Origin: an uncultured Acidimicrobiales bacterium
Lineage (GTDB): Bacteria; Actinomycetota; Acidimicrobiia; Acidimicrobiales; SZUA-35
NCBI GenBank assembly: GCA_937922045.1
Contig: CAKZXA010000010.1
Location: 35,325-99,324 of the forward strand
DNA: 64,000 nt
Reading direction: 5' to 3'
Numbering within the stretch: the first letter of the stretch is position 1; each line of letters opens with the position of its first letter. Shown here piece after piece: positions 7,853 to 46,622 of this stretch. Position numbers and translations under genes: made by a program. The notes under the pieces are model-generated. The model did not search any database. It was not told where the DNA came from and saw nothing but the letters and a program-made list of their open reading frames with translations.

Positions 7853-8509
7853 ATGCTCGACCTTCGGCCAAGTTGCGAACACTGCGCATCCGACGTGCGG
7901 GCTGATGGGCCCGGAGCGTTTTGTTGCTCGTTCGAGTGCACCTTCTGTTCGTCATGCGCAGCCGACGTGTTCTCCTATGTCTGTCCCAATTGCACGGGTC
8001 CTCTCCTGCCCCGCCCATGGCGACCCGCGGAGCATCGAGAAAAGGCACCACCGTCAACCGATCGAGTGGAAAAGCCAGCCGACCTCAAGGCCCATCCCGC
8101 CAAGGTCGCCGCCGCCATTGCTCGTGATGGTCGCCCCGCCCACCTTTGGGAGATTGTCGTCGACTGCGGGAACCCACCAGCTCTCGCCACCTTCTACGGT
8201 GATCTGCTCGGTATTACCGCCACGACGCGGGGCGAAGGCTGGGCCTATGTCGAACCGGCGCCACGAGGCCCGCTCCAGGTTGTAGGGGGAGTGGGAGGGG
8301 TGCGCATCGCCTTCCAGAAGGTCCCCGAGCCACGCACAGGAAAGGTTCGGCTTCACCTCGATTTCGCCGCCGAGGATCTCGATGCCTTCGCTCGACGGGC
8401 GGTGGAGCTTGGCGGTCGACGGCTCGAAGACGTTCCCGATGACTCATCGGGGCCCTTCATCGTTTTGGCCGACCCCGAAGGCCACGAGTTCTGCGTGGTG
8501 ACCCCATGA
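7853..8509 (+). CDS. DUF1272 Cys-rich domain fused to VOC/glyoxalase domain
   Basis: N-term MLDLRPSCEHC...CSFECTFC..C...CPNC; C-term IAFQKVPE...RLHLD...LADPEGHEFC. Confidence 0.8.
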   Translation: MLDLRPSCEHCASDVRADGPGAFCCSFECTFCSSCAADVFSYVCPNCTGPLLPRPWRPAEHREKAPPSTDRVEKPADLKAHPAKVAAAIARDGRPAHLWEIVVDCGNPPALATFYGDLLGITATTRGEGWAYVEPAPRGPLQVVGGVGGVRIAFQKVPEPRTGKVRLHLDFAAEDLDAFARRAVELGGRRLEDVPDDSSGPFIVLADPEGHEFCVVTP

Positions 8510-8551
8510 CGGCAACCTCATGACGGCAACCTCATGACCGTAAACCGATGA
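8506..8551 (+). repeat. 14-nt ATGA tandem units encoding MTATS*, MTATS*, MTVNR*
   Basis: ATGA at 8506, 8520, 8534, 8548; first overlaps the upstream stop, last is the downstream start. Confidence 0.9.
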
Positions 8552-9021
8552 CGGCGCCGACCGGCTATCACCTGGCCCAGTTCAACGTGGCCAAAGGCAA
8601 GGGCCCGGCGGAAGACCCAAGTGCCGACGCAGTCATGCGCGAGTTCATGGACAACCTCGACCGGATCAACGAGCTGGCCGATGTCTCACCTGGATTCGTC
8701 TGGCGGCACCAGGATGCCTCAGGAAACTCGACTTCGATCGATGTTTTCGACGACCCCGATGTGCTCGTCAACCTGTCGGTCTGGGAGGACTATGAGTCTT
8801 TCCACGACTATGTCTACCGCTCCGACCACGTGGCCTTCCTGAGGCGGCGGGTCGAATGGTTCGAACCGGTGGAAGACCTGCCGGTCGGTGTTATGTGGTG
8901 GATCCCGGCTGGCACTGAACCATCGATCGAAGAATCGCTGGCCAAACTCCGCCACCTCGGCGAGCACGGGCCAGGCCCCGAAGCCTTCAATCGGCGTCAA
9001 CGCTTCGAACCACCAACCTAA
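8548..9021 (+). CDS. DUF3291 family protein
   Basis: HLAQFNVA, RINELAD.SPGFVWR, VNLSVW, WWIPAG, HGP...AF motifs. Confidence 0.85.
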   Translation: MTAPTGYHLAQFNVAKGKGPAEDPSADAVMREFMDNLDRINELADVSPGFVWRHQDASGNSTSIDVFDDPDVLVNLSVWEDYESFHDYVYRSDHVAFLRRRVEWFEPVEDLPVGVMWWIPAGTEPSIEESLAKLRHLGEHGPGPEAFNRRQRFEPPT

Positions 9022-9063
9022 AAGCTGCCCGGTGGCTAGGGGGCGGCCAGTACGATCGATGTC

Positions 9064-12974: not shown

Positions 12975-12977
12975 ATC

Positions 12978-16201: not shown

Positions 16202-16207
16202 GTTCTG

Positions 16208-22225: not shown

Positions 22226-22232
22226 GTTCTCG

Positions 22233-23342
22233 TCAGCCGGCCTCTGCAGCCAGAAGCCTCGTCTTGCGGTCGGCGCCCCAGCGATAGCCGCCAGGCTTTC
22301 CATCGGCACGTATGACGCGATGACAGGGCACGATGAGGGCGACCTTGTTGGCCGCACAGGCATTGGCCACCGCTCGGTGAGCGCTTGGTCGGCCTAACGA
22401 TCGCGCTATGTCGCCGTAGGACGCGACGTCGCCGGTTGGAAGAGAACGCAGCGCCTCCCAAACCGCAACCTGAAAAGCCGTGCCCTGCACGTCGAGCGGC
22501 AGATCGACAGCCGCAGAGGGCCTACCCGCTGCTAGCTCCACCACGAGTGAAACCAGTTCGGCCAGGCCGTCGGGGTCCTCGATCACCTCGGCCTGCGGGT
22601 GCTCATCGATCAGGGCGGACCGCATGGATTCAACCTCGTCTTCGTGGCCTAGCCGAACCGAGCAAACGCCGCGTGCTGTGGCTGCCACCTGGACCACGCC
22701 AAGGGCACAAGGTGCGATGGCGTAGCCGATAGTGGTAGCCGACGCCCCGTCTCGCAAGACACCAGGTGTCATGCCAAGACGAGAAGCACCGTGTTCATAG
22801 AAGGCTCGCAGAGAACCAAAACCAGCATCGAAGGCGGCATTGGTTACCTCGCTTCCGGCCACTAGGGAACGCCGGGCCCGGTCGGCTCGTACAGACCGGC
22901 CGTAGGCGGCTGGCGTAACGCCTGTGACCGACTTGAAGGTACGGCTCAAGTGGCGGGCCGACCAACCGACGTCACCCGCCAATGCAGCGACCGTCGGTGC
23001 CTCGCCGTGACACTCGAGCCGGCGGCAGATGTCGGCGATGGTGGCGACCGATGGATCAGCGGTGGTGGCTTCGGTCGGTCGACAGCGCTTACAGGCCCGA
23101 TAGCCAGCTGCCTTGGCTTCGTCGCAGGCACCAAAGAACTCGATGTTGCTGCGCAGAGGCGTACGGGCTGGGCAGCCCGGTCGGCAGAAGACCCCGGTGG
23201 TACGCACGCCGTAGATGAAGAGGCTGATGGCAGCCGAATCTCGCCTTTCGATGACGGCCCACCGCGCATCATCGAGTTCGGTTTCGACGGCCGTATCGGC
23301 TTCGGCTGTGCCAGTGCTCATGATGTCGTTGCCAGTGCTCAT
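22233..23342 (-). CDS. ada: Bifunctional Ada transcriptional activator / O6-methylguanine-DNA methyltransferase
   Basis: GVFCRPGC and CKRC Zn site, AraC HTH, PCHRV active site. Confidence 0.93.
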   Translation of the reverse strand: MSTGNDIMSTGTAEADTAVETELDDARWAVIERRDSAAISLFIYGVRTTGVFCRPGCPARTPLRSNIEFFGACDEAKAAGYRACKRCRPTEATTADPSVATIADICRRLECHGEAPTVAALAGDVGWSARHLSRTFKSVTGVTPAAYGRSVRADRARRSLVAGSEVTNAAFDAGFGSLRAFYEHGASRLGMTPGVLRDGASATTIGYAIAPCALGVVQVAATARGVCSVRLGHEDEVESMRSALIDEHPQAEVIEDPDGLAELVSLVVELAAGRPSAAVDLPLDVQGTAFQVAVWEALRSLPTGDVASYGDIARSLGRPSAHRAVANACAANKVALIVPCHRVIRADGKPGGYRWGADRKTRLLAAEAG

Positions 23343-23348
23343 GATGTC
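23310..23348 (-). repeat. 21-nt in-frame duplication of the MFS/ada ATGA junction
   Basis: Minus strand gacatcATGAgcactggcaacgacatcATGAgcactggc giving MSTGNDI-MSTG. Confidence 0.85.
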
Positions 23349-24550
23349 AAGGTATGTGACGGGCGGCCGAGGCGCTTCCCGAAGAGAGACATCAAACCCA
23401 GAATTGGCCCAGGCAGGAGCAGCCAGAAGAGATAGCGGGGGTCGAGGTGGTCGGCGGCCAGATCAACCAACTGAATACTGACGACAGTGATGGCGAAGCC
23501 GATCGAGGTCACGATGGTGAGAGCGGTACCGACGTAGGCGGGTGGTGCAAAGCGAGCGTTGAGCGCTGAGTACTGAGGAGAGTCGCCAACGACCGTGATT
23601 CCCCAGATCACAAGGATGGTGAGGAGGGTGGTGCGACCCCACCCAAAGAGCCAGGGCGAGATCGCGCAGCACAGACCTGAGACCGCAAGCTGGCCTCCGG
23701 CCACAGCGCGGCTGCCGAACCGGTCCGACAGCACGCCGCCGACGGCGCAGCCGACAGCGCCAGCAACGATCACGATGAACGACCAGGCCGACACATCGAC
23801 CAGAACGTCACCGACCGCCCCCGACAAGCCATGAATCTCATTGAAGCGGCCCAGCCACCAGGGGAGGAACGCCCAGAAGGCGTAGAGCTCCCACATATGA
23901 CCGAAGTAGCCGAAGGCTGAAGACCGGAACTCGACCGAGCGAAAGATCTGAGGCACCGCTGACCACTCGAACGACGAGCCCGTCGAGAGGAAGGGACCGT
24001 CGGGCACCGCCACGAGCATGGCGATGCCTCCGGCCGCAGCGAGCAAGGACACGCTGATGAGCACCCACCGCCAATCGAGGTCGGTGCCGCTGGCTCGAAG
24101 CAGATGGGGAAAGGCGGTGCCAGCCACCAGGGCGCCGACGAGATAGCCGAGGGCGCGGCCCAAGCCGCCATCGTGCCAGCCCGCCGCGATCGTCATGCCG
24201 ACGGGGTACACGCCAGCCAGGAAAAATCCGGTGGCGAATCGAAGAATGAGGAGGGCGAGGAGGCTGTGAGGGCTGAAAACAACCGCCAAGGTAGAGACTG
24301 CCGCCGACACCACCGCGGTGAAGAAGATGACCCTTGGCGAGAACCGGTCGACCAGCACGGCGATAGCCGAGACCAAGGTTCCGATGATGAACCCGATCTG
24401 TACCGAAGAAGTGACGAGGCCGAGCGAGCCTTCGTCGAGTCCCCAATCTTGGGTCAGATCATCGATCACCGCATTTCCGGCAAACCAGAGCGAGGTTGCG
24501 GCGAACTGAGAGAAGATGATGACCGGCACGATCCTGCGAGGACGTTCCAT
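23339..24550 (-). CDS. MFS transporter
   Basis: ~12 TM; SLWF, VQ.GFI.G, LAGVYP.GM, GYFGHMWELYA, DSPQYS; start could be 24586. Confidence 0.9.
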   Translation of the reverse strand: MERPRRIVPVIIFSQFAATSLWFAGNAVIDDLTQDWGLDEGSLGLVTSSVQIGFIIGTLVSAIAVLVDRFSPRVIFFTAVVSAAVSTLAVVFSPHSLLALLILRFATGFFLAGVYPVGMTIAAGWHDGGLGRALGYLVGALVAGTAFPHLLRASGTDLDWRWVLISVSLLAAAGGIAMLVAVPDGPFLSTGSSFEWSAVPQIFRSVEFRSSAFGYFGHMWELYAFWAFLPWWLGRFNEIHGLSGAVGDVLVDVSAWSFIVIVAGAVGCAVGGVLSDRFGSRAVAGGQLAVSGLCCAISPWLFGWGRTTLLTILVIWGITVVGDSPQYSALNARFAPPAYVGTALTIVTSIGFAITVVSIQLVDLAADHLDPRYLFWLLLPGPILGLMSLFGKRLGRPSHTLTS

Positions 24551-24669
24551 ACCAGTACGAACCCCACGGGTCGACATCTTATTCACCGTTGTCGATTCAC
24601 CGTTCTTGGATCCACCTGTTCCAGGATAGGAGATGGTCGGCCCTGGGGCCGAAGCCCTACGATGGCGCC

Positions 24670-31593: not shown

Positions 31594-32955
31594 GTGAGTT
31601 CTGAGAATCCAGCGTTGGCGAGCGAGACGGGGACCGGCAGCGGGCCCAAGGCGGTGACGGTTCGGGTCGGCATTCTGGGCTGCGGCAATGTGGGCGCGCC
31701 CCTGGTCGAACTGATCGGGCAGCGCAACGATGCGATCGAAGCCGCAACCGGCATCCGTTTCGAGGTGGCCGCAGTAGCGGTTCGCAATACATCGAAGCCA
31801 CGGGAACCGGCTATCGACGAGAGCCTTCTTACCACCGTCGCTAACTCGGTCGTCACCGACCCAAGCATCGATGTCGTGGTTGAGGTGATCGGTGGTATCG
31901 AACCGGCCCGTTCCCTGATCGCCGAGGCCCTAAAGGGCGGCAAACCTGTGGTCACGGCAAACAAGGAGTTGTTGGCCAACGTCGGTGTTGAACTTTATGA
32001 AATCGCTGACGCCAACGGTGTCGATCTGCTTTTCGAGGCGGCCGCCGCTGGTGCGATCCCGATCGTTCGCCCCCTGCGCGAGTCACTACTCGGCGAAGAC
32101 ATCCAGCGCTTGATGGGCATCGTCAATGGCACCACGAACTACATTCTGACCCGCATGACCGAGGACGGCGCTTCCTATGCCGAAGCCCTGGCCGAAGCCC
32201 AACAGCGCGGCTATGCAGAACGAGACCCGACGGCTGACGTCGAAGGCTATGACGCCGGGGCGAAGGCTGCCATCATGGCGTCGATCGCTTTCGGTACCAC
32301 GGTTGTGGCCGGCGATGTTTACCACGAGGGCATCGCCAACATCACGCAGGAAGACATCGCCTTCGCCAAGCACTTTGGTTACACGATCAAGCTCTTGGCC
32401 ATCGCTGAGCGATTCGCCGATGATGAAGGCTTCGAGGTCGGGGTCACCGTGTATCCGGCCATGGTGGACGAAACCCACCCTCTGGCTTCGGTGCGGGGCT
32501 CCTTCAATGCGGTCTTCGTCGAGGGTGCGGCGGCGGGTGATCTCATGTTCTATGGACGAGGAGCGGGTGGCTACCCGACGGCCTCAGCGGTGCTGGGTGA
32601 CCTCATCGATGCTTCAGCCAACAAAACTCGCGGTAGTTTCCGACCCGTGCCCGCTGGCCCCCGAGCGAGGATCCGTCCAGTCGATGCCTTGGGTTCGGCC
32701 TTCTATTTCAATGTCGAGGTCGACGACACGCCCGGTGTGCTAGCGGCTGTCTCCGGTGCGTTTGGCCGCCATGGGGTATCCATCCGTTCTATGGAACAAC
32801 AAGTTGTTTCCGAAGGCGACGAGTTGGGCCGGGCGCGCATTGCTTTCATCACCCACGAAGCGGTTGAGAGGGATGTGCAGGCCACCCTGGCTGAACTCCA
32901 GGATCTCGATGCGGTGTTTCGGATTCACAGCGTGCTCCGGGTGATCGAATCATGA
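31594..32955 (+). CDS. hom: Homoserine dehydrogenase (with ACT domain)
   Basis: GCGNVG, VTANK, GIVNGTTNYIL, DVEGYDA..K, GRGAGG.PTASAV. Confidence 0.96.
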   Translation: MSSENPALASETGTGSGPKAVTVRVGILGCGNVGAPLVELIGQRNDAIEAATGIRFEVAAVAVRNTSKPREPAIDESLLTTVANSVVTDPSIDVVVEVIGGIEPARSLIAEALKGGKPVVTANKELLANVGVELYEIADANGVDLLFEAAAAGAIPIVRPLRESLLGEDIQRLMGIVNGTTNYILTRMTEDGASYAEALAEAQQRGYAERDPTADVEGYDAGAKAAIMASIAFGTTVVAGDVYHEGIANITQEDIAFAKHFGYTIKLLAIAERFADDEGFEVGVTVYPAMVDETHPLASVRGSFNAVFVEGAAAGDLMFYGRGAGGYPTASAVLGDLIDASANKTRGSFRPVPAGPRARIRPVDALGSAFYFNVEVDDTPGVLAAVSGAFGRHGVSIRSMEQQVVSEGDELGRARIAFITHEAVERDVQATLAELQDLDAVFRIHSVLRVIES

Positions 32956-32983
32956 GGTTTGTGTCATGAGGTTTGTGTCATGA
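32952..32983 (+). repeat. 14-nt ATGA tandem units encoding MRFVS* x2 at the hom/thrC junction
   Basis: ATGAGGTTTGTGTC x2 then ATGA; ATG at 32952, 32966, 32980. Confidence 0.9.
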
Positions 32984-34386
32984 GCGATGCCTCAGAGCGG
33001 CCGTTGACCTACACCTCGACCCGAGGATCCGCCCCTGAGCTTGGGTTCGGCGATGTGCTTCTGGCCGGGCTTGCGGTCGATGGCGGACTCTACTGTCCAA
33101 CGACAGTCCCTGAGCTTCCAACCGTCACCGCCGAGATGTCGTACCAGGAAGCGGCTGCAGCCATCATGGCTCCCTACGTCGCTGGCACGTTCGACGTCGG
33201 CACGGTCCGGACCATGGCCGACGACGCCTACCGCTCGTTTCGCTCGCCGTCGGTCTGCCCCGTGCACGAGTTGGCCTCAGGCCGCCACCTGCTCGACCTA
33301 ACGCAAGGCCCGACCTTGGCGTTCAAAGACGTGGCCCTTCAGATGGTTGGACGCATGCTGGATGCCCAACTTGAACGTAGGGGTGAACGGGTCACCGTTA
33401 TCGGCGCCACGTCGGGCGACACCGGTTCGGCTGCGATCGAGGCCTTGGCTAACAACAGAAATGTTGATGTCGTCATCCTCCACCCGCTCGACCGTGTTTC
33501 GGAGGTGCAGCGCCGGCAGATGACCACCGTGGTCGCTTCCAACATTAGCAATGTGGCCATCGAGGGGACCTTCGACGATTGTCAGGACCTGGTGAAGGCA
33601 GCCTTCGCCGACGAGGTGTTGCGGCAGGAGATGAATCTCGCCGCGGTGAACTCGATCAACTGGGCCAGAGTCATGGCCCAGATCGTCTACTACGTCACGT
33701 CGGCTCGAGCCGTCCGTCCCGACGGTGGCCCCGTTTCGTTCGCTGTGCCGACGGGAAACTTCGGCAACATCTTGGCCGGCTGGTATGCCAAGCGAATGGG
33801 ACTCAGCGTCGACCGGCTGATCATCGCCTCCAACCGAAACGATGTCCTTACTCGATTCTTCGAAACCGGCAGGCTGATCATCGAGTCGGTAGAGCCGTCG
33901 CTGAGCCCGAGCATGGACATTCAGATTTCGTCCAATTTCGAGCGGCTCCTCTGGGAAGCCAGCGGACGCGATGGTGACGCCATCGTCGACCTGCTGGCGG
34001 CCCTACGCAGCGAGGGACGCGTCGACGTGCCTGAGGCTTGGTGTGATGCCATCCGCGCCGAATTCGATGGCTACCGCCTCGACGATGAGGGCATCCTGGC
34101 TGAGATCGCCTCGGTCTCATCGGATTCGGAGCTGCTGATCGACCCCCACACCGCGGTTGGAACCTATGCTGCTCGAAGAGCCCAGGCCGACGGTGTGAAG
34201 AGCCCGATCATCGTTCTGTCGACGGCAGACCCGGCAAAGTTCCCCGACGCGGTTGAGCGAGCGGTCGGTGCCCGCCCTGAGCTCCCCGCCCACCTGAGCG
34301 AGTTGTTAACCCGTTCCGAGCGATTCGAGACGATGACGAACGATCTGGATGCGATCGCCGCCAAGCTTCGGTCGCTGCGAAGCTGA
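32980..34386 (+). CDS. thrC: Threonine synthase
   Basis: YTSTRG, GPTLAFKD, ATSGDTG, NSINWAR, VPTGNFGN. Confidence 0.96.
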   Translation: MSDASERPLTYTSTRGSAPELGFGDVLLAGLAVDGGLYCPTTVPELPTVTAEMSYQEAAAAIMAPYVAGTFDVGTVRTMADDAYRSFRSPSVCPVHELASGRHLLDLTQGPTLAFKDVALQMVGRMLDAQLERRGERVTVIGATSGDTGSAAIEALANNRNVDVVILHPLDRVSEVQRRQMTTVVASNISNVAIEGTFDDCQDLVKAAFADEVLRQEMNLAAVNSINWARVMAQIVYYVTSARAVRPDGGPVSFAVPTGNFGNILAGWYAKRMGLSVDRLIIASNRNDVLTRFFETGRLIIESVEPSLSPSMDIQISSNFERLLWEASGRDGDAIVDLLAALRSEGRVDVPEAWCDAIRAEFDGYRLDDEGILAEIASVSSDSELLIDPHTAVGTYAARRAQADGVKSPIIVLSTADPAKFPDAVERAVGARPELPAHLSELLTRSERFETMTNDLDAIAAKLRSLRS

Positions 34387-34659
34387 GTTCTGGCGGGTCG
34401 TCGTGTGGGAGCCGACGGTGGATGGATGCCGCTGAACCGAGAAGTTTGCTGGTAGTCTCGGTACGGAGGCTGTGGACAGGCGAACAAGGAGCTCATCGGA
34501 GTTCGATGTCGCTTTGTCTAGTAGGCCGTCTGGCACACGTTCGGGGATGTCGTGCGACGCCCCTCCATCGGTCCTGGTCTGAGTAGATCATGTTCTGGTG
34601 TGCCGCCACCTCGTAGTCCTCCCCGCCTGTTTACTGTCAATTTTTGTGAGGAAAAGCTC

Positions 34660-36543
34660 GTGAGTGATCAACTCGTTGTTGAGCGTGAAGGTCTTGAAAA
34701 AAAGGATAAGACTGAGCTTCAAACCATCGTTTCTGCCCTTGGAGGCTCGGCTCCGGCCCGAATGAAGAAGGCGGAGCTGATCGATCAGATCCTCGAGCTT
34801 TCCGGTGCTAGCGCCAGAGTCGAAGGCGGTTCTGACGACGCCCCAGCCGAACCGGAGATAGACAACGGAGCCGGTGAATCCGGCGAGATCGAATCCGGCG
34901 ACATCGAATCGGGCGAGATCGAAAGTGGTGCTCCTAGCGTCGCTGAAGCCGGAGGTCGTGGCGCCAAGGTGATCGAAGAGGCCATCGCTGATGACCATCC
35001 GATTGGACCCGACGGTGAACCACTGGCCGACTGGGAGATCAAGGTGCTGGCCGAGGGTGGCGAATTGCCGACCCACGGCAAGGACGGCCGTCGTAAGCAG
35101 CGTCAGCGCAATCGCGGCCAGAACAAGTCGGATAACGGCGGCAAGCAGTCCGGCGATCAGAGGTCGCAGCGAAACAGCCAACGAGGCGATGGCGGAGGAA
35201 AGAACGCCAACAACGCTGGCAATAACAGCGGTGGGAACAACAACGCCGGCAATAACAACGGTGGAAACAACAACGCTGGAAACAACAAGGCGACGAACGA
35301 CGCTAAGAACGATGATGATGACGACGATGGCAACAGCCGCCGGTCGCGCCGTCGTCGGGGGCGGGGTCGTGATAGAGACGACGCTGGCGACGATGCCATC
35401 ACCAATGAGCAGACCCGGGTCGAGGGTTATCTCGACCTCCGGGACGAGGGCTATGCCTTCCTCAGGGTGAACGGCTTTCTGCCCAGTCGCGATGATGCCT
35501 ACGTTTCGGTAAAACAGGTTCGTCAGTTCAAGCTGCGCAAGGGCGATCACCTCATCGGCTTTTCGAGGCCTGCCAACCGCAACGAGAAGAACCCGGCCCT
35601 GCACGAGGTTGAATCGATCAACGGTCTCACTCCGTCGGAGATGAAGACCCGTGTCGACTTCGAAGACCTGACGGCACTGTTCCCCACCGAACGTCTGGTG
35701 CTCGAAACCAAAGACGAGCCGCTCGATATGACGGCGCGCATCATCGATCTGCTGGCACCGATCGGCAAGGGCCAACGCGGCCTGATCGTGTCGCCCCCTA
35801 AGGCGGGCAAGACGTCGATCATGAAAGCCATCGCACGAGCGATCGAAGCGAACAACCCTGAGGTCGAACTGCTGGTGCTGCTCGTCGACGAGCGACCCGA
35901 AGAGGTGACCGAAATGAAGCGTCACCTGTCGGCTGGCGAGGTTGTGTCGTCGACCTTCGATCGACCCCCCGAAGAGCACACCGCCGTTGCTGAAATCACG
36001 CTCGAACGAGCCAAGCGCATGACCGAGAACGGCAAGGACGTTGTCCTCATCGTTGACGGTATGACTCGGTTGGCACGGGCCTACAACATGGCGGCCCCCC
36101 AGTCTGGCCGTTCCCTCTCTGGCGGTATCGACGCTGCCGCCCTCTATCCGCCAAAGCGTTTTCTCGGCGCAGCTCGCAACGTTGAAGAAGGTGGCTCGTT
36201 GACAATTCTCGCCACCGCTCTGGTCGAGACCGGCTCAAAGATGGACGAGGCTATCTTTGAGGAGTTCACCGGCACGAGCAATATGGAATTGCGGCTCGAT
36301 CGAAGCCTGGCGGAGAAGCGCATCTTCCCCGCAATCGACGTTGACGGCTCCTCAACTCGCAGTGAAGAGTTGCTGCGCGACGATCGGGAGGTCGAAGCCT
36401 CTTGGAAGCTACGCCGAATGATCTCGGAGATGCGTAGCTCCGACGACGGTGGTGGCGCCGCAAGCGGTATTCAGATGCTGGTCGAACGGCTTGGCCAGTC
36501 CAAGACCAACGACGACTTCCTCGACGACATCCGGAAGTACTAA
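34660..36543 (+). CDS. rho: Transcription termination factor Rho with long N-terminal insertion
   Basis: [49 protein letters not shown]. Confidence 0.96.
35209..35289 (+). repeat. Asn/Gly low-complexity coding repeat in the Rho insertion
   Basis: [27 protein letters not shown], 30-nt period; ESG(E/D)I x3 repeat also at 34876-34920. Confidence 0.85.
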
Positions 36544-36977: not shown

Positions 36978-37021
36978 TCCCGAGGCTCCTTCTGAATTCG
37001 TCCGCCTCATCTGGTGCTCAG

Positions 37022-39182: not shown

Positions 39183-39198
39183 TACAGATCAGCGTTCC

Positions 39199-40092
39199 AT
39201 GGTTGTTTGGCAGAACGTTGTGACCGAGGCGGTGACGCTGCTGGCTGAGGCTGGTGTAGCCGATCCGGACCTGAGCGCTACCTGCATCGGTCAACGAGCC
39301 ACCGGGGCTGAAGGCGCTGAGTGGCTTGAGGAGTTGCGAGCGCCGGTGAGCGAGCGTCACCTCGCTGCCTTTGATGCCATGGTTGAGCGCCGTCGAGGCG
39401 GTGAGCCACTGCAGTACGTCGTTGCCGGTTGGGGGTTTCGCTATCTCGACCTGTTCCTGGATGCAAGGGTTCTCATCCCGCGGCCTGAAACAGAGACCAT
39501 CGCTGGCGCTGCCATCGCTGAAGTGCGCCGCTTGGCGCTCGCCCGACCGGCTTCAGCCGAAGGGCCGGTGAGAGTCGCCGATCTGGGTACTGGCTCTGGT
39601 GCCATCGGCCTGTCGATCGCGGCCGAATGTGGGCCGGAGATCGATCGTTTGGATGTTTGGCTTACCGACGTGTCGGCCGATGCTTTGGCGGTGGCTCGCG
39701 CCAACCTTGCGGGTCTGGGTCGATCCGGCGGAAGTGTTCGCCTGGCTGAGGGGGATTGGTTCGATGCTCTTCCCGATGCGTTGCGCGCCGGCTTTAACGT
39801 GCTTGTCTCGAACCCGCCATATGTGGCTGACGATGATGAGATTGAACCCCAGGTGGCAGTGTGGGAACCGCCAACCGCTCTCTATGCCGACGACAGCGGC
39901 ACCGCTCATCTCCGCCACCTCGTCGAGACGGCCGCCGACTGGTTGGTGGACGATGGGGCGCTGATTCTGGAGATGGCGCCATCTCACGTGGACATGCTCG
40001 CAGCTATGGCAGGAGAGCGGTTCGCCGAGGTCGACATACTCGTGGACCTGGCTGATCGGCAGCGAGGCATCACCGCCCGCGATCCGGGGTGA
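39199..40092 (+). CDS. prmC: Release factor glutamine methyltransferase
   Basis: EPLQY, VLIPRPETE, DLGTGSGAI, SNPPY. Confidence 0.95.
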   Translation: MVVWQNVVTEAVTLLAEAGVADPDLSATCIGQRATGAEGAEWLEELRAPVSERHLAAFDAMVERRRGGEPLQYVVAGWGFRYLDLFLDARVLIPRPETETIAGAAIAEVRRLALARPASAEGPVRVADLGTGSGAIGLSIAAECGPEIDRLDVWLTDVSADALAVARANLAGLGRSGGSVRLAEGDWFDALPDALRAGFNVLVSNPPYVADDDEIEPQVAVWEPPTALYADDSGTAHLRHLVETAADWLVDDGALILEMAPSHVDMLAAMAGERFAEVDILVDLADRQRGITARDPG

Positions 40093-40155
40093 GCATCATG
40101 GGGCGTCAGTACAAACGCTGCGTTCGACCGGCTGCCCTACGTCTGAGGCCGGTCT

Positions 40156-40731
40156 CTAGTCGAGGCCGTCTTTCAGCCGTCGGATGCCAGCACGCGTAGC
40201 CTCGACCGGATCAAAGTCCTCCGGGTCGAGTGCCCACATCAACAACATGGCTTGGAGCACGCCACCAACGGCCGAAGCGACGGTCATCGCTTCCATCTCA
40301 CGGCCGGGGCCCAACCGTTCGAGAAAGTTCGCGGCGACATTGAGTTCGGTGTCGTAGATGATGTGCAGAACCTGGGGGAAGATCTCAGGCGCTTCGGTTA
40401 GGACCATCCACTCGGAACGCCGACCGACCCCGGGCACAAGCTCGAGCATGTCGTCTTCTTCGGCCAGCGCTATGCAGACCTCTAGGGGTGACTCGGTCAT
40501 CGGCCGATCCAGCACCCGCTGCTTCAGAAGCTCGCACCTTCGCCGAAACGGGGCGAGCGCCATTTCTTCCTTGGTGCTGAAGTAGCGAAAGAGAGTGCTT
40601 TCAGACACGCCAGCTCGTTCGGCGATATCGACCGTTCGCGAAGCCCCATAGCCCCACTCCTCGAACATCTCGAAAGCAGCGAGTTCAAGGTCGCGCCTCG
40701 TCTGCTCCTTCTTTTGTTCCCGAAGTCCCAT
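40156..40731 (-). CDS. TetR/AcrR family transcriptional regulator
   Basis: MGLREQKKEQTR...DIAERAGVSESTLFRYFSTKE. Confidence 0.92.
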   Translation of the reverse strand: MGLREQKKEQTRRDLELAAFEMFEEWGYGASRTVDIAERAGVSESTLFRYFSTKEEMALAPFRRRCELLKQRVLDRPMTESPLEVCIALAEEDDMLELVPGVGRRSEWMVLTEAPEIFPQVLHIIYDTELNVAANFLERLGPGREMEAMTVASAVGGVLQAMLLMWALDPEDFDPVEATRAGIRRLKDGLD

Positions 40732-41026
40732 TGCAGACAGGAGGGTAGCCGTCGATGCGAGGATGCCTCAGATTCTTGAGCAAACTTGACGGATTATTGT
40801 GGGAGCGACTCGCACATTTGGTACAGTCTGGTTACTCCAAATCGTCTTTGTTGACGGATGGCAGTGGCTGGCGGTTCTGGCGGTTCTGGCGGATCGTAGA
40901 GGTGTTTTCTTCTTGGTGCGCCACGGATCTGAAGCCGTGGCCTGCCATCTCAACACACAGCTCGAACGGTTTGCTCGGATGTCTTCGAGCATCTCCGCCG
41001 ATCAAACCTTCGGGTTCGATCGGTCT

Positions 41027-41078
41027 TCGTACTGGCACCCTCGACCGGGACCGGCACCGATCTCGGGTGCCAGTGCGA
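41027..41078. repeat. Long imperfect inverted repeat (REP-like or terminator-like)
   Basis: TCGTACTGGCACCC (41027-40) pairs with GGGTGCCAGTGCGA (41065-78), one G-U. Confidence 0.7.
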
Positions 41079-41162
41079 GCCTTTCCTTGACGGTGCGTCA
41101 TGCGGTGGTATCGATCGGAGACCACTCGCAGCTGTGATCGCCAACTGCTAGCGTTGTGGCCA

Positions 41163-41597
41163 ATGTTTAATCGGCACGACAAACTCGATGTGGGATGGCT
41201 AGCTCAGGTCGGTTTCTTCGCCGGATTTACGCCGGCTGAACTCGAAGCTGTGGCTGACCTTGGTCAGCGTTGCGACGTCTCAGCTGGAACGATCCTGTTG
41301 GACCAGGGCGACTATGGATCTCGTTGCTATGTGCTGGTGAGCGGAACCGCAACCGTCTCCATCCGCGGTGAGTTTGTTACCTCCGTTGGCCCGGGAACGA
41401 TGGTTGGCGAAATGGCGCTTATCGAGCATCGTCCGCGGAACGCAACCGTGATCGCCGAAACCGACATGGCGCTCGTGTCGTACGATACGGCGGAGTTCCG
41501 GAAGCTTCTGGATGCGAGCCCAACCGCGGCCGAGAGGGTCAACGCTCTTCTCGCCGCCCGCTTGGCTGTCAACGCCAGTCGCGACGGCGCCACCTAG
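41163..41597 (+). CDS. Stand-alone cyclic-nucleotide-binding domain protein
   Basis: QGD.G...Y.LVSG, GPG..VGEMALI..RPRNATV. Confidence 0.9.
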   Translation: MFNRHDKLDVGWLAQVGFFAGFTPAELEAVADLGQRCDVSAGTILLDQGDYGSRCYVLVSGTATVSIRGEFVTSVGPGTMVGEMALIEHRPRNATVIAETDMALVSYDTAEFRKLLDASPTAAERVNALLAARLAVNASRDGAT

Positions 41598-41642
41598 TGG
41601 CGCGGGCCAGCCTCCCGGCGGCTCGACCTGTACGCTGGTGCC

Positions 41643-42089
41643 ATGCGAATCGCCGTCGGTTCCGATCATGCTGGCTTCCAGCTGAAATCAACCATTTCCG
41701 CTCACTTGAGTGAAGCCGGTCACGAGGTTGTTGATCTCGGGACCTCCACTACTGAGTCTGTCGACTACCCCGACTATGGGCGAGCGGTGGGCGAAGCGGT
41801 AGCTGGCGGCGGGGTCGATACCGGAATCGCGATCTGCGGATCGGGTATCGGTATCTGTATGGCCGCCAACAAGGTCAAGGGGGTCAGAGCTGCAACGGTC
41901 CACGACGTGACCTCGGCTCGATTGACCCGGCTGCACAACGACGCGAACGTCTTGTGTCTTGGCGAACGGTTTCTTGGTGTTCAGGTTGCGCTCGACGCCG
42001 TTGACACGTTCTTGGCAACGCCATTCGAGGGGGGACGTCATGCGCGTCGAGTTGGCAAAATCGAACAGTTGGGGCCCGTAACCGGCTAG
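41643..42089 (+). CDS. rpiB: Ribose-5-phosphate isomerase B
   Basis: GSDHAG, VDYPDY, CGSGIG, HNDANVL, FEGGRH. Confidence 0.96.
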   Translation: MRIAVGSDHAGFQLKSTISAHLSEAGHEVVDLGTSTTESVDYPDYGRAVGEAVAGGGVDTGIAICGSGIGICMAANKVKGVRAATVHDVTSARLTRLHNDANVLCLGERFLGVQVALDAVDTFLATPFEGGRHARRVGKIEQLGPVTG

Positions 42090-42154
42090 CAACGGCAATC
42101 CGGTTACGCTGTCGACAGCAGTCGATCTACCGTAGAGTTCTTAGGAGCTAAAGA

Positions 42155-43402
42155 ATGCCATGGCCAACCCTTCCGGACGATGACATCGTGCGGCTCACCG
42201 AAGCTGAGGTGATCCGTCAGAACACGGCGCTGCAGCTTATCGCTTCGGAAAACTTCGCCTCGCCGGCGGTGATGCGGGCAACGGGCTCGGTCTTCACCAA
42301 CAAGTACTCCGAGGGTTACCCAGGCCGCCGCTACTATGGCGGCAATCAGGTCGTCGACGAGGTCGAGGAGCTAGCCCGTACGCGGGTTTGCGCCCTGTTC
42401 GGTGCCGATCATGCCAACGTGCAACCCCATGCTGGCGCCAATGCCAACATGGCGGTTTATCAGGCTCTTTTGGAGCCCGGTGACACGGTCCTAGGTCTCA
42501 GCCTCGATCACGGTGGCCACCTGACCCACGGTTCTCCCGTGAACTCGTCGGGTTTGATGTACAACTTCATCGGCTACCGCGTTTCGGAAAGCGATGAGCG
42601 GCTTGAGATGGATGCGGTGGCTGAGCTTGCCGCCAAACACCGCCCCAAACTGATCGTCGCTGGCGCAACCGCCTATCCTCGCACCATCGAGCCGGAGCCT
42701 TTCCGCAAGGTGGCCGACGAGGTCGGGGCTCTCCTGATGTTCGATGCAGCCCACATTGCTGGCTTGATCGCCGGCGGCGTGCATCCCAATCCGGTGCCGT
42801 TCTGTGACGTCGTTACCTTCACCACCCACAAGACGTTGCGCGGTCCTCGTGGCGGTTGCATCTTGAGCACATCTGAGCACGCCGCCGCGATAGACAAGGC
42901 GGTGTTTCCCGGCCAGCAGGGTGGGCCACAAGAGCATTCGATAGCGGCCAAGGCTGTTGCTTTCGCCGAGGCGTCGACCGAAGAGTTCAAGGTCTATTCA
43001 GCGCAGATCGTGGCCAACGCATCGGCGCTAGCCGAGGCTCTCGCCGGCGAGGGGTTCCGCCTGGTCTCAGGCGGCACCGACAATCATCTCATGCTGGTCG
43101 ATTTGCGCAGCTTTGACGAAGAGCTGACCGGCAAGGAAGCCCAGATCGTGCTCGATGAAGCGGGCATCACACTCAATCGAAACTCCATCCCTGACGATCC
43201 GCGGTCGCCGTTTGTGACCTCCGGGTTGCGTATCGGCACGCCAGCGGTGACGACCCAGGGTATGAAAGAGCCAGAGATGGCGGAGATCGCCCGTCTGATG
43301 GCGGCTACCCTTCGACAGCGCACCGATGCTGCCGCTGTCGCTTCCCTGCGGGAGGAAGTTCGCAACCTTTGCGAGCCATTCGCTCCGTATCCGGAAATGT
43401 AG
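42155..43402 (+). CDS. glyA: Serine hydroxymethyltransferase
   Basis: [39 protein letters not shown]. Confidence 0.97.
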
Positions 43403-43410
43403 GTAGATCG

Positions 43411-44865
43411 ATGGCGGGCACAGCGGCGGCTGCGACTTCAAAACATTCGACTCTGATCGTCGGACTCGTTGGTGTGCTTTTCGGGGTATTGGTTCTGGCC
43501 GTGCTTTACGCGTCGCCAGCCGCGGCCCATACCGATCTCGCCTCTACCGACCCGCCAGACCGCGCCCAAATCGCTGACCCGGTAGCGTCGGTCACGCTCA
43601 CCTTTACCGGTGAGGTGACCATGCACGACCCTGGTGTCGAGGTTTTGTCGCCCAATGGTGTTGTTGTCACTCCCACCCGGATTGAAAAAGGCAGTGCTGG
43701 CGTTTTCGTGGCCTTCTTTGAACCGCCGTTGGACGACGGAACCTTCGGACTCCGCTGGTCGGTTTCAGCGGCCGACGCCCACCTCATCTCGGGAGGCCTG
43801 TCGTTCTCCGTTGAAGGTGCCAACGCTGAAGCCTCCGACGCTGTCGATGGCGAGACCGGTGATGGCGACGACGATGAGGCTTCATCTACCGTGACGTCGA
43901 GTCCGTCTTCGACCACGACCACGACCACGACCACGCCGGTGTCGTCTACAACGACCGAAGCGGAGCCGGATCGACAAGATGAGGACGATCAGGTCGAGGT
44001 GGCTGCTCCTGCCGCCATGCTCGACTTTTACAATGAGGCTCTTCCTCGATGGACGCGCGCTGTCCGTCAGGCTGGTCGAACCGCAGGCACACTTGGGTCG
44101 CTGGTCGCTGTCGGTGCACTGATCTTCTCCGCTCGAGTCCTTCGGGACGATCGGCTCGCAACGGAGCGTCCTGCGGTCAGAGATATGGCAGCGGTCGCTG
44201 GCGCTGTCGCCTCCATCGGTGCGGTCGGGGAGGTCGTGGCGCTATCCGAGGCCTTGAGCATCATGGACCTGGCTGGGGTACAGCTCGGCCTAGCCTTGGC
44301 GCTGCGCTTTGCCGGCGGCGCTCTATGCTCGACCAGCGGACGTTGGTTGGGCGCCCTCCTCCTCGTCGCCTCTTGGGGCGTCGATGGACACAGCGCAACG
44401 ATTGAGCCTCGGATCCAGATGGTTGGTGCATCGATAGTCCACGGGCTCGTCGCCGCCGTATGGGTCGGGGGGATTGTGGCCTTGGTGCAGGTGTGTCGTC
44501 GGCGCCGGTCGCTGCTTGGCGTCGTTGGTGCTCGTTTCTCCGGGATCGCCGCCGCCAGCCTTGCGGTAGCTGCGCTTTCGGGTTCCGGCTTGGCCATCCT
44601 GATTACCGCCGAGCAAGAAGAGAGCTTTTGGGAGACGCTGACCACCACCCCGTGGGGTCTGATCTTGCTAGGCAAGCTCGTGGTGGTTCTGGCCGCTGTC
44701 TGTATCGGCGCCTACAACCGCTGGATCTTGATCCGCAACCTCACGATCGATGCCTCGATGGCCTCGTCGAGGCATTTCGCGAAAGTGGTGAGCATCGAGG
44801 CCGCCGTACTGCTGGTCGTTGCAACTATCACATCATTCCTCATCGTGGCTTCGCCGTTGGGCTAG
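43411..44865 (+). CDS. CopC-CopD fusion copper transport protein
   Basis: Signal peptide ending AAAH; CopC WSVSAADAH; Thr-rich linker; CopD GH...H....WVGG, WG.IL..KL. Confidence 0.85.
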   Translation: MAGTAAAATSKHSTLIVGLVGVLFGVLVLAVLYASPAAAHTDLASTDPPDRAQIADPVASVTLTFTGEVTMHDPGVEVLSPNGVVVTPTRIEKGSAGVFVAFFEPPLDDGTFGLRWSVSAADAHLISGGLSFSVEGANAEASDAVDGETGDGDDDEASSTVTSSPSSTTTTTTTTPVSSTTTEAEPDRQDEDDQVEVAAPAAMLDFYNEALPRWTRAVRQAGRTAGTLGSLVAVGALIFSARVLRDDRLATERPAVRDMAAVAGAVASIGAVGEVVALSEALSIMDLAGVQLGLALALRFAGGALCSTSGRWLGALLLVASWGVDGHSATIEPRIQMVGASIVHGLVAAVWVGGIVALVQVCRRRRSLLGVVGARFSGIAAASLAVAALSGSGLAILITAEQEESFWETLTTTPWGLILLGKLVVVLAAVCIGAYNRWILIRNLTIDASMASSRHFAKVVSIEAAVLLVVATITSFLIVASPLG

Positions 44866-45104
44866 TTCTGCCCCTCGTCGGTCGGTGAGCCATACGTGGC
44901 GGGGTACAAGGGGGAACAGGGGAACGTTTGAAAGGCGGCGTCGGTTTGCGGCCTGCACCGCGGCCAGGACTGCCGTCGGTCGCTGTACCCAGTTCGATGG
45001 TCCCGAGGTCATCTTTGACGACGGGGATCATGTGGTCGTTCTCTTCACGAATGCGACTTAGGGGCTGCGGGACGGCGTCGAACATGCTACGTTGACGGCG
45101 GCCC

Positions 45105-46217
45105 ATGAGACCCGCCCTCTCGTCGTACTTGGTCGTCGCTGCGGTCACCGCCGTCGTGACGCTGGCACTTATCCCTCTCGTTCGCCTCATCGCTCATGCG
45201 ACAGGCTTGTTGGCTGAACCAGATGCACGTCGGTTTCATGCGAAGCCAACCCCGATTCTTGGCGGCGCGGCCATGTATGTCGGCTTTGTTGCCGGTCTCG
45301 CCACCGCCTGGCGGTCGGGCTGGTTTGCGCCTTCGTTTGACGGATCGACCGAGCCGGTCGCTGTTCTGGCCTGCGCCACCGTCGCCTGCCTCGTCGGACT
45401 CGTCGATGATGTGCTCGATATCTCAGCTCCGGCGAAGACAGCCGGTGTATCGCTGGCCGCCGTTCTTCTCGCCCTCGGCGGCGTCAGTATCATCTGGTTT
45501 CGGATCCCCTTCCTCGACGTTTTTGTCCTTCCCGCCGACCTGACCTTGCTGTTGTCGGTCGTGTGGGTTTTGGGTATGGCCAACGCCGTCAACTTCATCG
45601 ATGGGCTGGATGGTCTGGCTGGCGGCATCGTGGGTATCGGCGCATTGGCCTTCATGCTCTATGGGGTGCGCATGGGACAGGTCGAGCTGCTCTTCCCAAG
45701 CAATATCGGCCCACTGATAGCGGCCCTGGTCGTTGGCATGTGTTTGGGCTTCTTGCCGTGGAACGTCTTTCCGGCCCAGATCTTCATGGGCGACAGTGGT
45801 TCGTTGCTCCTCGGGAGCTTGATGGCAGCATCGACGATGGCGGTCGGCGGGCGAACCCCCGATCCGTTCAGTGGTCAAACGTTTTTCTTCTATGCGCCCC
45901 TCGCTATCCCCCTGCTGATCCTGGGGGTTCCTGTGCTCGACACGGCCTTCGCCATCGTCCGCCGTGCGACGCATCGCCAAGGTCTTGCGACAGCGGACAA
46001 AGACCATCTCCACCACCGACTGGTGCGGCTGGGCCATGGCCATCGGCGTAGCGTCGGGATTCTTTGGGCCTGGACAGCCTTGTTGTCAGCCTTCGTGCTT
46101 TACCCCACCTACAATGAGGGCCAAGGTGACGGTGTGGTGCCCATTGGGGTCGGCATGCTGGCCCTGTTGTTGTACACCCTGTTCCATCCGGGCATCCGTA
46201 TAGGACAGGTCCGGTAA
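45105..46217 (+). CDS. wecA: MraY-family polyprenyl-phosphate GlcNAc-1-P transferase (WecA/TagO)
   Basis: GLVDD, NAVNFIDGLDGLA, IFMGDSG, DKDHLHHRL; canonical position before atp. Confidence 0.88.
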   Translation: MRPALSSYLVVAAVTAVVTLALIPLVRLIAHATGLLAEPDARRFHAKPTPILGGAAMYVGFVAGLATAWRSGWFAPSFDGSTEPVAVLACATVACLVGLVDDVLDISAPAKTAGVSLAAVLLALGGVSIIWFRIPFLDVFVLPADLTLLLSVVWVLGMANAVNFIDGLDGLAGGIVGIGALAFMLYGVRMGQVELLFPSNIGPLIAALVVGMCLGFLPWNVFPAQIFMGDSGSLLLGSLMAASTMAVGGRTPDPFSGQTFFFYAPLAIPLLILGVPVLDTAFAIVRRATHRQGLATADKDHLHHRLVRLGHGHRRSVGILWAWTALLSAFVLYPTYNEGQGDGVVPIGVGMLALLLYTLFHPGIRIGQVR

Positions 46218-46297
46218 CGATCTAAGCGCCCCATGGCAGGGTTGGTGGCAGCCGTCGAGGTTGCGGTCAGAGCCCAGCAGGGAGCGAGGAGAGACTC

Positions 46298-46594
46298 GTG
46301 GACGGATCGCAAAGCCCAAACGGTACGAACGGTCAAGCGGTAGACGCTGGGCCCGATTCGATGACTCGAGATATGGCTCAAGGTGTGAGCGGGTATGAAC
46401 TTGTCTTGTCCGGTGTCGTCTTTGCTCTGGCTGGCGTCTGGATCGACAAGAAACTCGAAACCACCCCCCTCTTTATCCTGGTCCTCTCGGTTCTCGGCTT
46501 TGGCGGTTCGGCCTTGAATATCTACTACCGCTACAACCGTGAGATGCGTGAACACGAAGCCGAAGCCGCGGCTCGCCGAAAGGGTCCAGCATGA
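46298..46594 (+). CDS. AtpZ/AtpI family small membrane protein
   Basis: Two TM with G.WID..L.T.P.F motif; position before the atp genes. Confidence 0.8.
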   Translation: MDGSQSPNGTNGQAVDAGPDSMTRDMAQGVSGYELVLSGVVFALAGVWIDKKLETTPLFILVLSVLGFGGSALNIYYRYNREMREHEAEAAARRKGPA

Positions 46595-46622
46595 GGGATA
46601 CGGCATGAGGGATACGGCATGA
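46591..46622 (+). repeat. 14-nt ATGA tandem units encoding MRDTA* x2 at the atpZ/atpI junction
   Basis: ATGAGGGATACGGC x2 then ATGA; ATG at 46591, 46605, 46619. Confidence 0.9.

Follow-up and report, generated by a model that had tools for sequence, protein, structure and literature searches.

Why does the tetranucleotide ATGA recur every 14 nt at three gene junctions of one bacterial contig, and is this arrangement used by the cell or only tolerated? The window, the whole stretch of 64,000 nucleotides that was analysed, comes from an uncultured Acidimicrobiales bacterium. The first-pass annotation had described, at each of the three junctions, a chain of pentapeptide mini-ORFs that each stop on the next ATGA, in units unrelated between loci. 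Direct reading of the positions bore out all of these points. TRF returned a period-14 array of 2.5-2.7 copies at every site, each mini-ORF terminates on the TGA within the following ATGA, and the units of different loci have no sequence in common. Genes were placed by ORF lists and Pfam, and genome-wide gene calls were obtained with our own crude caller.

The three arrays lie on the plus strand. At site 1 (8506..8551), ATGA stands at 8506, 8520, 8534 and 8548; two identical 14-nt units are followed by one diverged unit and then by the ATGA of the gene itself, giving three 5-codon mini-ORFs (MTATS, MTATS and MTVNR). The third unit has kept its ATGA while 5 of its 10 other bases have changed, and 7 of the 10 payload positions of the unit agree with the flanking sequence. 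The upstream gene (7853..8509, plus strand; Pfam DUF1272 and Glyoxalase_6) has its TGA inside the first ATGA, and the downstream gene (8548..9021, plus strand; Pfam DUF3291, domain from residue 9) starts on the last. Site 2 (32952..32983; ATGA at 32952, 32966 and 32980) consists of two identical 14-nt units, encodes MRFVS twice, and separates hom, encoding homoserine dehydrogenase (31594..32955, plus strand; ORF list and Pfam), whose stop falls inside the first ATGA, from thrC, encoding threonine synthase (32980..34386, plus strand). The thrC frame is open from the last ATGA, with Thr_synth_N beginning at residue 10, and its N-terminus is about 6-8 residues longer than that of relatives' thrC. 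Each unit carries GAGG 8 nt upstream of the following ATG, and the minus strand also shows an ATGA array, TCATGA being palindromic. Site 3 (46591..46622; ATGA at 46591, 46605 and 46619) likewise has two identical 14-nt units, here reading MRDTA twice, with GAGG after each ATGA and 8 nt upstream of the next ATG. It follows an AtpZ-like small membrane protein gene (46298..46594, plus strand; Pfam ATPase_gene1) that stops inside the first ATGA, and its last ATGA is the start of a gene for an AtpI-like protein (46619..47152, plus strand; a weak ATP-synt_I match, 20.4 bits against a cut-off of 25.1).

Thus, the proposal that the upstream stop lies in the first ATGA and that the last ATGA is the downstream start holds at the three window sites; across loci, the stop is not a general feature, and the anchor common to the arrays is the downstream start codon. 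A related event occurs in the same window on the minus strand, where an ATGA junction between the stop of an MFS transporter gene and the start of an Ada-type methyltransferase gene has undergone a 21-nt tandem duplication (23309..23348). Its period is 0 mod 3 and the second ATG lies in frame 7 codons downstream, which fits a sieve acting on reading frame.

The arrays are not products of chance. For ATGA triplets at any single spacing, 0.45 occurrences are expected in the genome, and 8 were observed at spacing 14 (6 loci); exact adjacent 14-mer repeats are expected about 0.02 times per genome by our own arithmetic, and 27 were found. In G000, the genome that carries the window and the only one for which the tandem-repeat period spectrum was computed, these 27 exact period-14 arrays comprise 14 at gene edges and 13 in intergenic DNA, and none inside coding sequence. 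Other periods are similarly common (27 arrays at 11 nt and 20 at 13 nt), and the genome is full of 10-17-nt tandem duplications, many with stop codons at the 3' ends of genes. Among near-perfect start-region duplications of period 2 mod 3 at called G000 starts, 11 of 12 close the spare ORF at +4; NTGA makes up 1659 of the 4107 called starts, for which our own binomial calculation gives a probability of about 4e-4. A histogram of uORF distances before NTGA starts in G000 was nearly flat, with no genome-wide preference for 14 nt (ATG-only counts: 32 at 14 nt, 22 at 11 nt, 19 at 17 nt and 34 at 8 nt), so the surplus at 14 nt is roughly what the arrays contribute.

The pattern extends to related genomes. 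In-phase ATGA triplets were counted in 25 same-genus genomes, which are related and not independent samples, against a reversed-pattern control, and gave 75 matches at spacing 14 (control 5), 31 at 17 (control 7), 18 at 11 (control 1) and 17 at 13 (control 15). The predicted peak at 14 nt was therefore found, and periods of 1 mod 3 stayed close to the control or did not occur. ATGG at the same spacing gave 27 matches (control 17), 7 of them the opposite strand of ATGA arrays, and among called G000 starts ATGG is two-thirds as frequent as ATGA (661 vs 994). GTGA at spacing 14 showed no clear enrichment in these genomes (44 vs 35 in the reversed control), and about 20 of its matches appear tandem. 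Of 47 spacing-14 loci in the genus, 38 were examined for context, and at 23 of these a real ORF starts on the last ATGA; Pfam domains were found in 19 of 20 such ORFs, and in 17 the best match starts between residues 5 and 26. The genes downstream of arrays include thrC, an atpI-like gene, carA, thiolase, PFOR, SDR and LysR/LacI regulators. Of 36 tandem-like array rows, 26 have a payload that extends into the flanking sequence, with agreement at 7 or more of 10 positions (mean for shuffled payloads, 4.1), and the array L049 of a relative is an exact triplication of its own junction. Units that are specific to their locus and run on into its flanks indicate local tandem duplication and not a mobile element.

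Copy number, which had been singled out for comparison, differs between strains. Logan contigs of metagenome runs, of which X1 and X2 are possible source runs of the assembly, were compared at sites 2 and 3 over 14.6 kb listed; X4 and X5 contributed small shares, X4 in short pieces only. Contigs of X1, X2 and X3 span site 2 without gaps and carry the same two units, and those of X2 span site 3 intact. The strain in X3 (~99% identical) has one extra unit at site 3, with 14 nt inserted behind 46586; among the indels listed over the 14.6 kb, only this one and a 1-nt insertion at 37348, present in minor contigs only, have lengths not divisible by three. The copy number at site 3 thus drifts by slippage. 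In relatives, hom/thrC is joined by a plain in-frame 4-nt NTGA overlap at 18 of 25 loci and atpZ/atpI at 18 of 20, so the window arrays at these two junctions are young 28-nt insertions. Duplication of the thrC start is common to G001 and G016, and G001 has lost the upstream ATGA; hom/thrC arrays arose independently in three lineages, represented by the window, G016/G001 and G115.

We consider it probable that these arrays are slippage duplications of ATGA starts or junctions that survive a reading-frame sieve, the spare ATGs being closed by the next TGA. The host lineage, uncultured marine Acidimicrobiales, would have genomes prone to tandem duplications of 10-17 nt in non-coding DNA, and an array would begin as a young local duplication of a 14-nt stretch across an ancestral ATGA stop/start overlap, likely by a slipped-strand or microhomology-mediated mechanism. 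At gene starts, such duplications would persist only on passing the sieve. With A as the fourth base and a period of 2 mod 3, a spare ATG would open a 5-codon ORF ending on the TGA of the next ATGA; consequently, the upstream and downstream proteins would be unchanged and no out-of-frame ribosome would run across the true start. The downstream gene would then be translated by serial termination-reinitiation, and at sites 2 and 3 initiation may also be direct, since GAGG lies 8 nt before the next ATG. Drift in copy number probably alters downstream expression somewhat, which would be a by-product and not a selected device. Neutral junction duplication, tolerated at periods of 0 or 2 mod 3, had been offered earlier as the alternative to a relay, and it is favoured by the absence of arrays in most relatives, the decay in G001, the ordinary genes downstream, the other duplications in the genome and the period-21 junction.

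Several observations count against duplication plus sieve. Exact period-14 arrays cover an NTGA start and one upstream period in 4 of 27 cases in G000, whereas 0.63 would be expected on average if arrays fell at random in non-coding DNA and 14-nt gene edges (P = 0.0035), an excess of about 6-fold. Three of the six ATGA period-14 loci in the genome fall within 38 kb of one contig, the diverged unit of site 1 has retained its ATGA, and ATGAGG units are over-represented among arrays (8 of 47, against 2.2% of ATGA starts). The array in G134 reaches at least 12 units between genes that presumably require expression. Finally, the preference for 14 over 11 and 17 in the raw genus counts is not accounted for by the sieve; G000 itself has equal numbers at 11 and 14 (27 each).

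The most serious rival is a selected translational rheostat, in which a slippage-variable number of relay ORFs or GAGG units would set ribosome delivery in a heritable and reversible manner. Some of the evidence agrees with it, including the polymorphism at site 3, the excess at NTGA starts, the ATGA still held by the diverged site 1 unit and the independent origins of hom/thrC arrays. In addition, ATGA is the top in-phase 4-mer of G000 period-14 arrays (6 of 43), and 5-12 or more units precede carA, thiolase and PFOR-type genes. A strong SD-like site stands before the first ATG alone at three loci (L069, L072 and C62 of G000), where the true start would depend on the relay; no general rule emerged from the SD-like strength of the first ATG relative to the last, which was stronger at 10 and weaker at 13 of 23 loci. 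Against a rheostat stand the lack of array conservation at orthologous junctions and the decay of the upstream ATGA in G001. The genes downstream are also housekeeping, ordinary metabolic or regulatory genes and not of surface or contingency type, and the sieve predicts every sequence signature too. The relay proposal of the first-pass annotation fared unevenly: the ATGA peak at 14 nt and the copy-number difference stood, and the evidence that discriminates leans to tolerated duplication. Neither the frame signature nor copy-number variation separates the two, because both readings predict them. A tuning role is possible in view of the surplus of arrays at NTGA starts and the polymorphic copy number, and a selected rheostat as such strikes us as having perhaps a quarter of the weight of the matter on its side. 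A bolder form, somewhat less likely again, is that Acidimicrobiia use locally generated, slippage-variable 14-nt ATGA arrays as reversible, heritable translation dials on ordinary operon genes; this would require unusually efficient serial reinitiation through up to a dozen or more consecutive 5-codon ORFs, with a period set by ribosome geometry, 14 nt being the least length that accommodates a start, a stop and the Shine-Dalgarno-to-start spacing. Taken together, the array pattern recurs across the class and looks more like frame-filtered junk than like a proven control device.

The remaining explanations are far less probable. One is that the repeats are arrays of binding sites for an RNA- or DNA-binding regulator, or form a regulatory RNA structure; in other bacteria, tandem direct repeats before starts have been proposed to be regulator sites (the TAACTGA repeats, in the available part of PMC4679880). 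Across our loci only ATGA is held in common, which makes regulator sites improbable, and a role for RNA structure was rejected, as the predicted folding of the three junctions was no better than that of shuffles (z = 0.15, -0.34 and 0.15). Insertion of a MIRU-like mobile or templated element, bringing 10 nt and a 4-nt ATGA target duplication to start codons, is more doubtful still. ATGA does bound each unit here, and according to the accessible portions of PMC12548453 and PMC3184786, MIRUs insert at start codons, have an internal ORF with -4 nt coupling and show direct repeats of a tetranucleotide. Units of different loci share no sequence, measure 14 nt and not the 40-100 bp of MIRUs, and match their own flanks far above random, on which ground a mobile origin was rejected. 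Weakest of all is an assembly or polishing artefact: assemblies break at tandem repeats, the contigs of X1 and X3 stop within site 3 and contigs terminate at the G134 and G137 arrays. We nevertheless rejected it because Logan contigs of three runs agree on two units at site 2, site 3 is intact in X2 and differs by exactly one unit in X3, and comparable arrays are present in dozens of genomes assembled separately.

Should the chains be translated in the way their sequence implies, they would offer dozens of natural constructs that place 1 to 12 or more successive reinitiation steps before identifiable genes, and thereby a ready test of the efficiency and processivity of bacterial termination-reinitiation. 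If the arrays are merely tolerated, a whole bacterial class has a distinctive mutational habit of short duplication. The arrays show a reading-frame sieve at gene boundaries, beyond gene interiors; for annotation, they flag true start codons, and they also break assemblies built from short reads.

Among known systems, phase-variable contingency loci switch or grade expression through changes in repeat length and are associated with surface, restriction or host-interaction genes. The arrays resemble them in a tract length that varies in populations (here at site 3) and differ in their downstream genes, which belong to none of these groups. The closest precedent is the mycobacterial MIRU. No description of 14-nt start/stop-phased arrays was found in a search of mostly open-access main texts; the earlier view that no such system had been described nevertheless needs correcting, since the ORF within a MIRU is coupled to a gene start at -4 nt (available part of PMC12548453). 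MIRU-VNTRs, such as the senX3-regX3 intergenic repeats (Supply et al. 1997), are a dispersed family with 40-100-bp units of common sequence that are thought to be mobile, and their 77- and 53-bp units vary in number between H37Rv and CDC1551 (as given in the available parts of PMC12548453, PMC3184786 and PMC4213456, which cite Supply et al.). By our own arithmetic, 77 and 53 are 2 mod 3, as is 14. Both systems have tandem intercistronic repeats in an actinobacterial operon, a short ORF per unit that overlaps the flanking stop and start (-4 nt), and a unit number that varies between strains. In contrast to MIRUs, the arrays lack a dispersed family sequence, their units are locus-unique, derived from the local junction and found in Acidimicrobiia, and a 14-nt unit falls outside the size range of about 40-100 bp.

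Termination-reinitiation pairs (ATGA/TGATG; PMC6728339, PMC10666635 and PMC12548453) share the stop/start ATGA, each array step being a classic -4 overlap. The ancestral junctions here are such single overlaps, and the arrays differ by placing overlaps in series through 5-codon ORFs, a chain for which the available portions of these three texts contain no experiments that we could find. Short uORFs in mycobacteria bring ribosomes to the downstream gene with which they are coupled (Shell et al. 2015, cited in the available part of PMC12548453) and are likewise non-functional short ORFs coupled to a main start, whereas the uORFs here come from tandem duplication of the start region and vary in number. 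TAACTGA heptamers, repeated directly upstream of starts in Beggiatoaceae and cyanobacteria (available part of PMC4679880), are also short tandem repeats with stop codons directly before start codons; they constitute a single conserved heptamer genome-wide, whereas the payloads here are unrelated and every unit has a start codon. Borg elements carry pervasive, recent, locus-unique tandem repeats whose units within ORFs are all divisible by three, and they resemble our arrays in being young repeats pervasive in one genome type with frame selection visible; Borg repeats are amino-acid repeats or intergenic, and the start/stop-phased class is not mentioned in the available part of PMC9879509. With slippage-generated tandem duplications in the broad VNTR sense, the arrays share head-to-tail units and a period that is continued by the flanks.

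The three 14-nt ATGA arrays of the window were read directly from the sequence and lie where the first-pass annotation had placed them. ATGA occurs at 8506, 8520, 8534 and 8548 (site 1), at 32952, 32966 and 32980 (site 2, hom/thrC), and at 46591, 46605 and 46619 (site 3, atpZ/atpI), and TRF called a period of 14 for all three. ORF lists and Pfam assigned the flanking genes to a DUF1272+Glyoxalase_6 protein and a DUF3291 protein (site 1), homoserine dehydrogenase and threonine synthase (site 2), and an ATPase_gene1 (AtpZ-like) protein followed by a weak ATP-synt_I match (site 3). Because a 14-nt period is 2 mod 3, the frame opened by each ATG closes after five codons on the TGA of the next ATGA; the resulting peptides match those listed earlier. 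The window is part of contig C10 of a 4.88-Mb genome, G000 (61% G+C, 128 contigs), whose nearest named records are MAGs of uncultured Acidimicrobiales or Acidimicrobiia, and the runs containing the window's sequence are marine metagenomes.

Logan contigs of three metagenome runs, aligned to window 32500-47100, demonstrated more than one unit at sites 2 and 3: site 2 is crossed gap-free by contigs of X1, X2 and X3, and site 3 is spanned intact by an X2 contig, with independence limited by the origin of all runs in one study and by X1 and X2 being possible sources of the assembly. The copy-number difference sought by the first-pass annotation was found as well, as X3 represents a strain with scattered SNPs and an additional 14 nt behind 46586, which is one further in-phase unit at site 3. 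The remaining strain indels in these 14.6 kb are +15, +9, -12 and, in minor contigs of X2 and X4 only, an insertion of 1 nt at 37348. The three larger X3 indels, all multiples of three, sit within ~110 nt (43811-43921), at and beside a hexamer repeat (43910-43935).

Equally spaced ATGA triplets, expected at 0.45 per spacing in G000, number eight at spacing 14, representing six loci (sites 1-3 and arrays on contigs C62, C73 and C83), three at spacing 11, one at 17, and none at 7, 10, 13 or 16. ATGA is also the commonest in-phase 4-mer among the tandem-like period-14 arrays of this genome (6/43), and it is in phase in 0 of 59 tandem-like period-13 arrays. Across 25 genomes of the genus, with the reversed pattern as control, ATGA gave 75 hits at spacing 14 (47 loci in 17 genomes; control 5), 31 at spacing 17 (control 7), 18 at spacing 11 (control 1) and 17 at spacing 13 (control 15). 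At spacing 14, ATGG gave 27 hits, seven of them the opposite strand of ATGA arrays (control 17), and GTGA gave 44 (control 35). The scan proposed in the first-pass annotation thus returned a peak at 14 and weak 1 mod 3 spacings, in G000 and in the genus; both are predicted by its hypothesis of a rheostat-like relay of five-codon mini-ORFs and also by its alternative, a reading-frame sieve under which neutral junction duplications are tolerated only at a period of 0 or 2 mod 3. Period-13 ATGA arrays of 4-5 units do exist (L061-L063, at G003:C13:2747692, G003:C13:1308619 and G018:C4:2004596); two of them run up to the start of a real gene (481 and 133 codons), and their spare ORFs terminate either two units further on or at an internal TGA.

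Exact tandem duplications in G000 number 27 at period 14, 27 at 11, 20 at 13, eight at 16 and five at 17. According to a rough gene caller built from codon log-odds (4107 genes, 88.7% coding), the period-14 arrays comprise none within genes, 14 touching a gene edge and 13 intergenic. Many arrays of 10-16 nt lie at the 3' end of a gene and include its stop codon, often TAG; in examples at C121:9761, C14:90373, C32:75371 and C1:100189 the gene terminates within the first copy, leaving the later ones silent. In the window, an ATGA junction on the minus strand is duplicated in tandem with a 21-nt unit (23309-23348); the genes on either side encode an MFS transporter (23339..24586) and an Ada-type methyltransferase (22233..23342). 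The duplication has a period of 0 mod 3 and a second ATG in frame, so that either seven N-terminal residues are repeated or two in-frame starts are available. Together with three of the six period-14 ATGA arrays of G000, this duplication falls within 38 kb of C10 (8506-46622). An imperfect 15/30-nt tandem repeat of 5.4 copies (35208-35288) runs in frame inside a long ORF (34600..36543).

The context of 38 of the 47 genus loci was inspected. In 23 of them, the last ATGA is the start of an ORF that has 100 codons or more and scores positive for coding (for one, a Pfam match stands in place of the score). Nineteen of 20 such ORFs matched a Pfam family, with the best-scoring match beginning at residues 5-26 in 17 of the 19; the exceptions are a kynureninase-type ORF (from residue 339) and an ABC permease ORF (from 249). 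The families include nitronate monooxygenase, kynureninase, LysR, LacI, ABC permease, SDR, thiolase, PFOR, carA, enoyl-CoA hydratase and XdhC, and such ordinary genes count against a conserved device. A long upstream gene also stops in the first ATGA in only 6/38 loci (L049, L059, L070 and the window's three). As a general class, the arrays duplicate the start-codon region in tandem, and the junction relay is the subset whose start was already stop-overlapped. At L046 (G018:C4:959831-962862), two divergent genes flank an array built on the palindrome TCATGA; the last ATG of each strand opens an ORF, one for an enoyl-CoA hydratase, the other 261 codons long and lacking a Pfam match.

Of 151 Acidimicrobiia genomes from beyond the genus, 39 had a match. 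A close look at 12 regions from nine genomes revealed full relays in G076 and G109, and in G134 a single 14-nt ATGA array with no fewer than 12 units, split over the ends of contigs C16 and C49 (L185/L186); its first ATGA holds the stop of a 351-codon frame, and its last is the start of a 245-codon ORF. In a phylum sample, 19/121 genomes matched, a tally that includes the unpublished genome G205, on which no result depends; hits outside Acidimicrobiia were mostly single and not repeat-like. G074 carries a 7-nt unit beginning ATGA in tandem at ~11 loci; this heptamer array is dispersed, in contrast to the 14-mers, which are unique to their locus.

In relatives, the hom TGA lies inside an ATGA, GTGA or TTGA whose start is in frame with thrC at 18 of 25 loci having both genes, and atpZ/atpI shows the same plain 4-nt NTGA overlap at 18/20. 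Because most relatives' loci carry plain overlaps, the window arrays at these junctions are insertions of 28 nt into overlaps that were ancestrally 4 nt long; DNA identity to the nearest relatives is only ~65-68%, so the age of insertion cannot be fixed finely. Arrays are missing at the orthologous junctions in most relatives, in G016 the thrC start carries a duplication of 14 nt, and G001 keeps that duplication with the upstream ATGA mutated away, all of which counts against a conserved device. In another Acidimicrobiales family, hom/thrC bears an independent 14-nt in-phase array (L195, G115:C8:304700-307800); by our reading of the sequence, hom stops in a CTGA, four ATGA units follow, and a GTGA opens the thrC-like frame. 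That brings the separate events at hom/thrC to three (window, G016/G001 and G115).

The 10 bases after each ATGA were compared with the sequence after the last and before the first ATGA. Twenty-six of 36 tandem-like rows match their flanks at 7 or more of 10 positions, four at 10/10, against an average of 4.1 for shuffled payloads; sites 1, 2 and 3 score 7, 6 and 7. Local duplication, then divergence and re-expansion, fits these matches. Among near-perfect start-region duplications in G000, 12 at called starts have a period of 2 mod 3 (three, three, five and one at periods 8, 11, 14 and 17), and the spare ORF ends at +4, on an NTGA start, in 11 of them (binomial ~4e-4 by our calculation, with NTGA at 1659/4107 called starts). 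Called ATGG starts are two-thirds as frequent as ATGA starts (661 vs 994), yet ATGG arrays are few. Taken together, the arrays are probably frame-sieved slippage duplications of ATGA starts or junctions, crossed by putative reinitiation and, at two sites, aided by a putative unit-borne SD-like element. Slippage would duplicate the start or junction, the frame sieve would decide its persistence, and translation would pass across by reinitiation, carried at those two sites also by the SD-like element.

Several points lie outside what the sieve explains. When the 27 exact period-14 arrays were randomly placed in non-coding DNA plus 14-nt gene edges, arrays covering an NTGA start and one period averaged 0.63, against four observed (P = 0.0035; site 1 would be a fifth). 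The others are the clustering of half the G000 loci in 38 kb, the genus excess of period 14 over 11 and 17 (11 and 14 being equal overall in G000), and ATGAGG units in 8/47 genus arrays vs 2.2% of ATGA starts. On these grounds, selection may also play a part, or starts may be a mutational hot spot. Pairing scored with a generic anti-SD motif is stronger before following ATGs than before the first at site 2 (-6.3 vs -3.8 kcal/mol) and site 3 (-6.1 vs -4.5 kcal/mol), and for this reason duplication may have supplied thrC and the atpI-like gene with their own ribosome-binding sites. At L069, L072 and the C62 array of G000, the sole strong SD-like site precedes the first ATG, the opposite arrangement, and the 23 arrays scored follow no general rule. 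No RNA structure was predicted at the junctions, which counts against a conserved device.

The interpretation in the first-pass annotation is partly supported: the spacing peak, the weak 1 mod 3 class and the strain difference in copy number agree with a tuning role of the arrays, and the sieve shares these predictions. Most relatives lack the arrays, and a selected tuning role is possible but less likely than the sieve. A dispersed element of the MIRU type was rejected, because payloads match their own flanks and units from different loci have no sequence in common.

The first-pass annotation knew of no description of such a system. For the 14-nt locus-unique form, its start-codon anchoring and its spread through Acidimicrobiia, our literature search likewise found none. 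The principle itself, coupled ORFs carried by repeats whose number varies, is already in print: in mycobacterial MIRUs the repeat is described as containing an internal ORF that is coupled to the gene start at -4 nt (PMC12548453), tetranucleotide direct repeats and ORFs that overlap the neighbouring genes are noted for them (PMC3184786), and the senX3-regX3 repeats measure 77 and 53 bp and vary in number between strains (PMC4213456). By our arithmetic, both senX3-regX3 unit lengths are 2 mod 3, as is 14.
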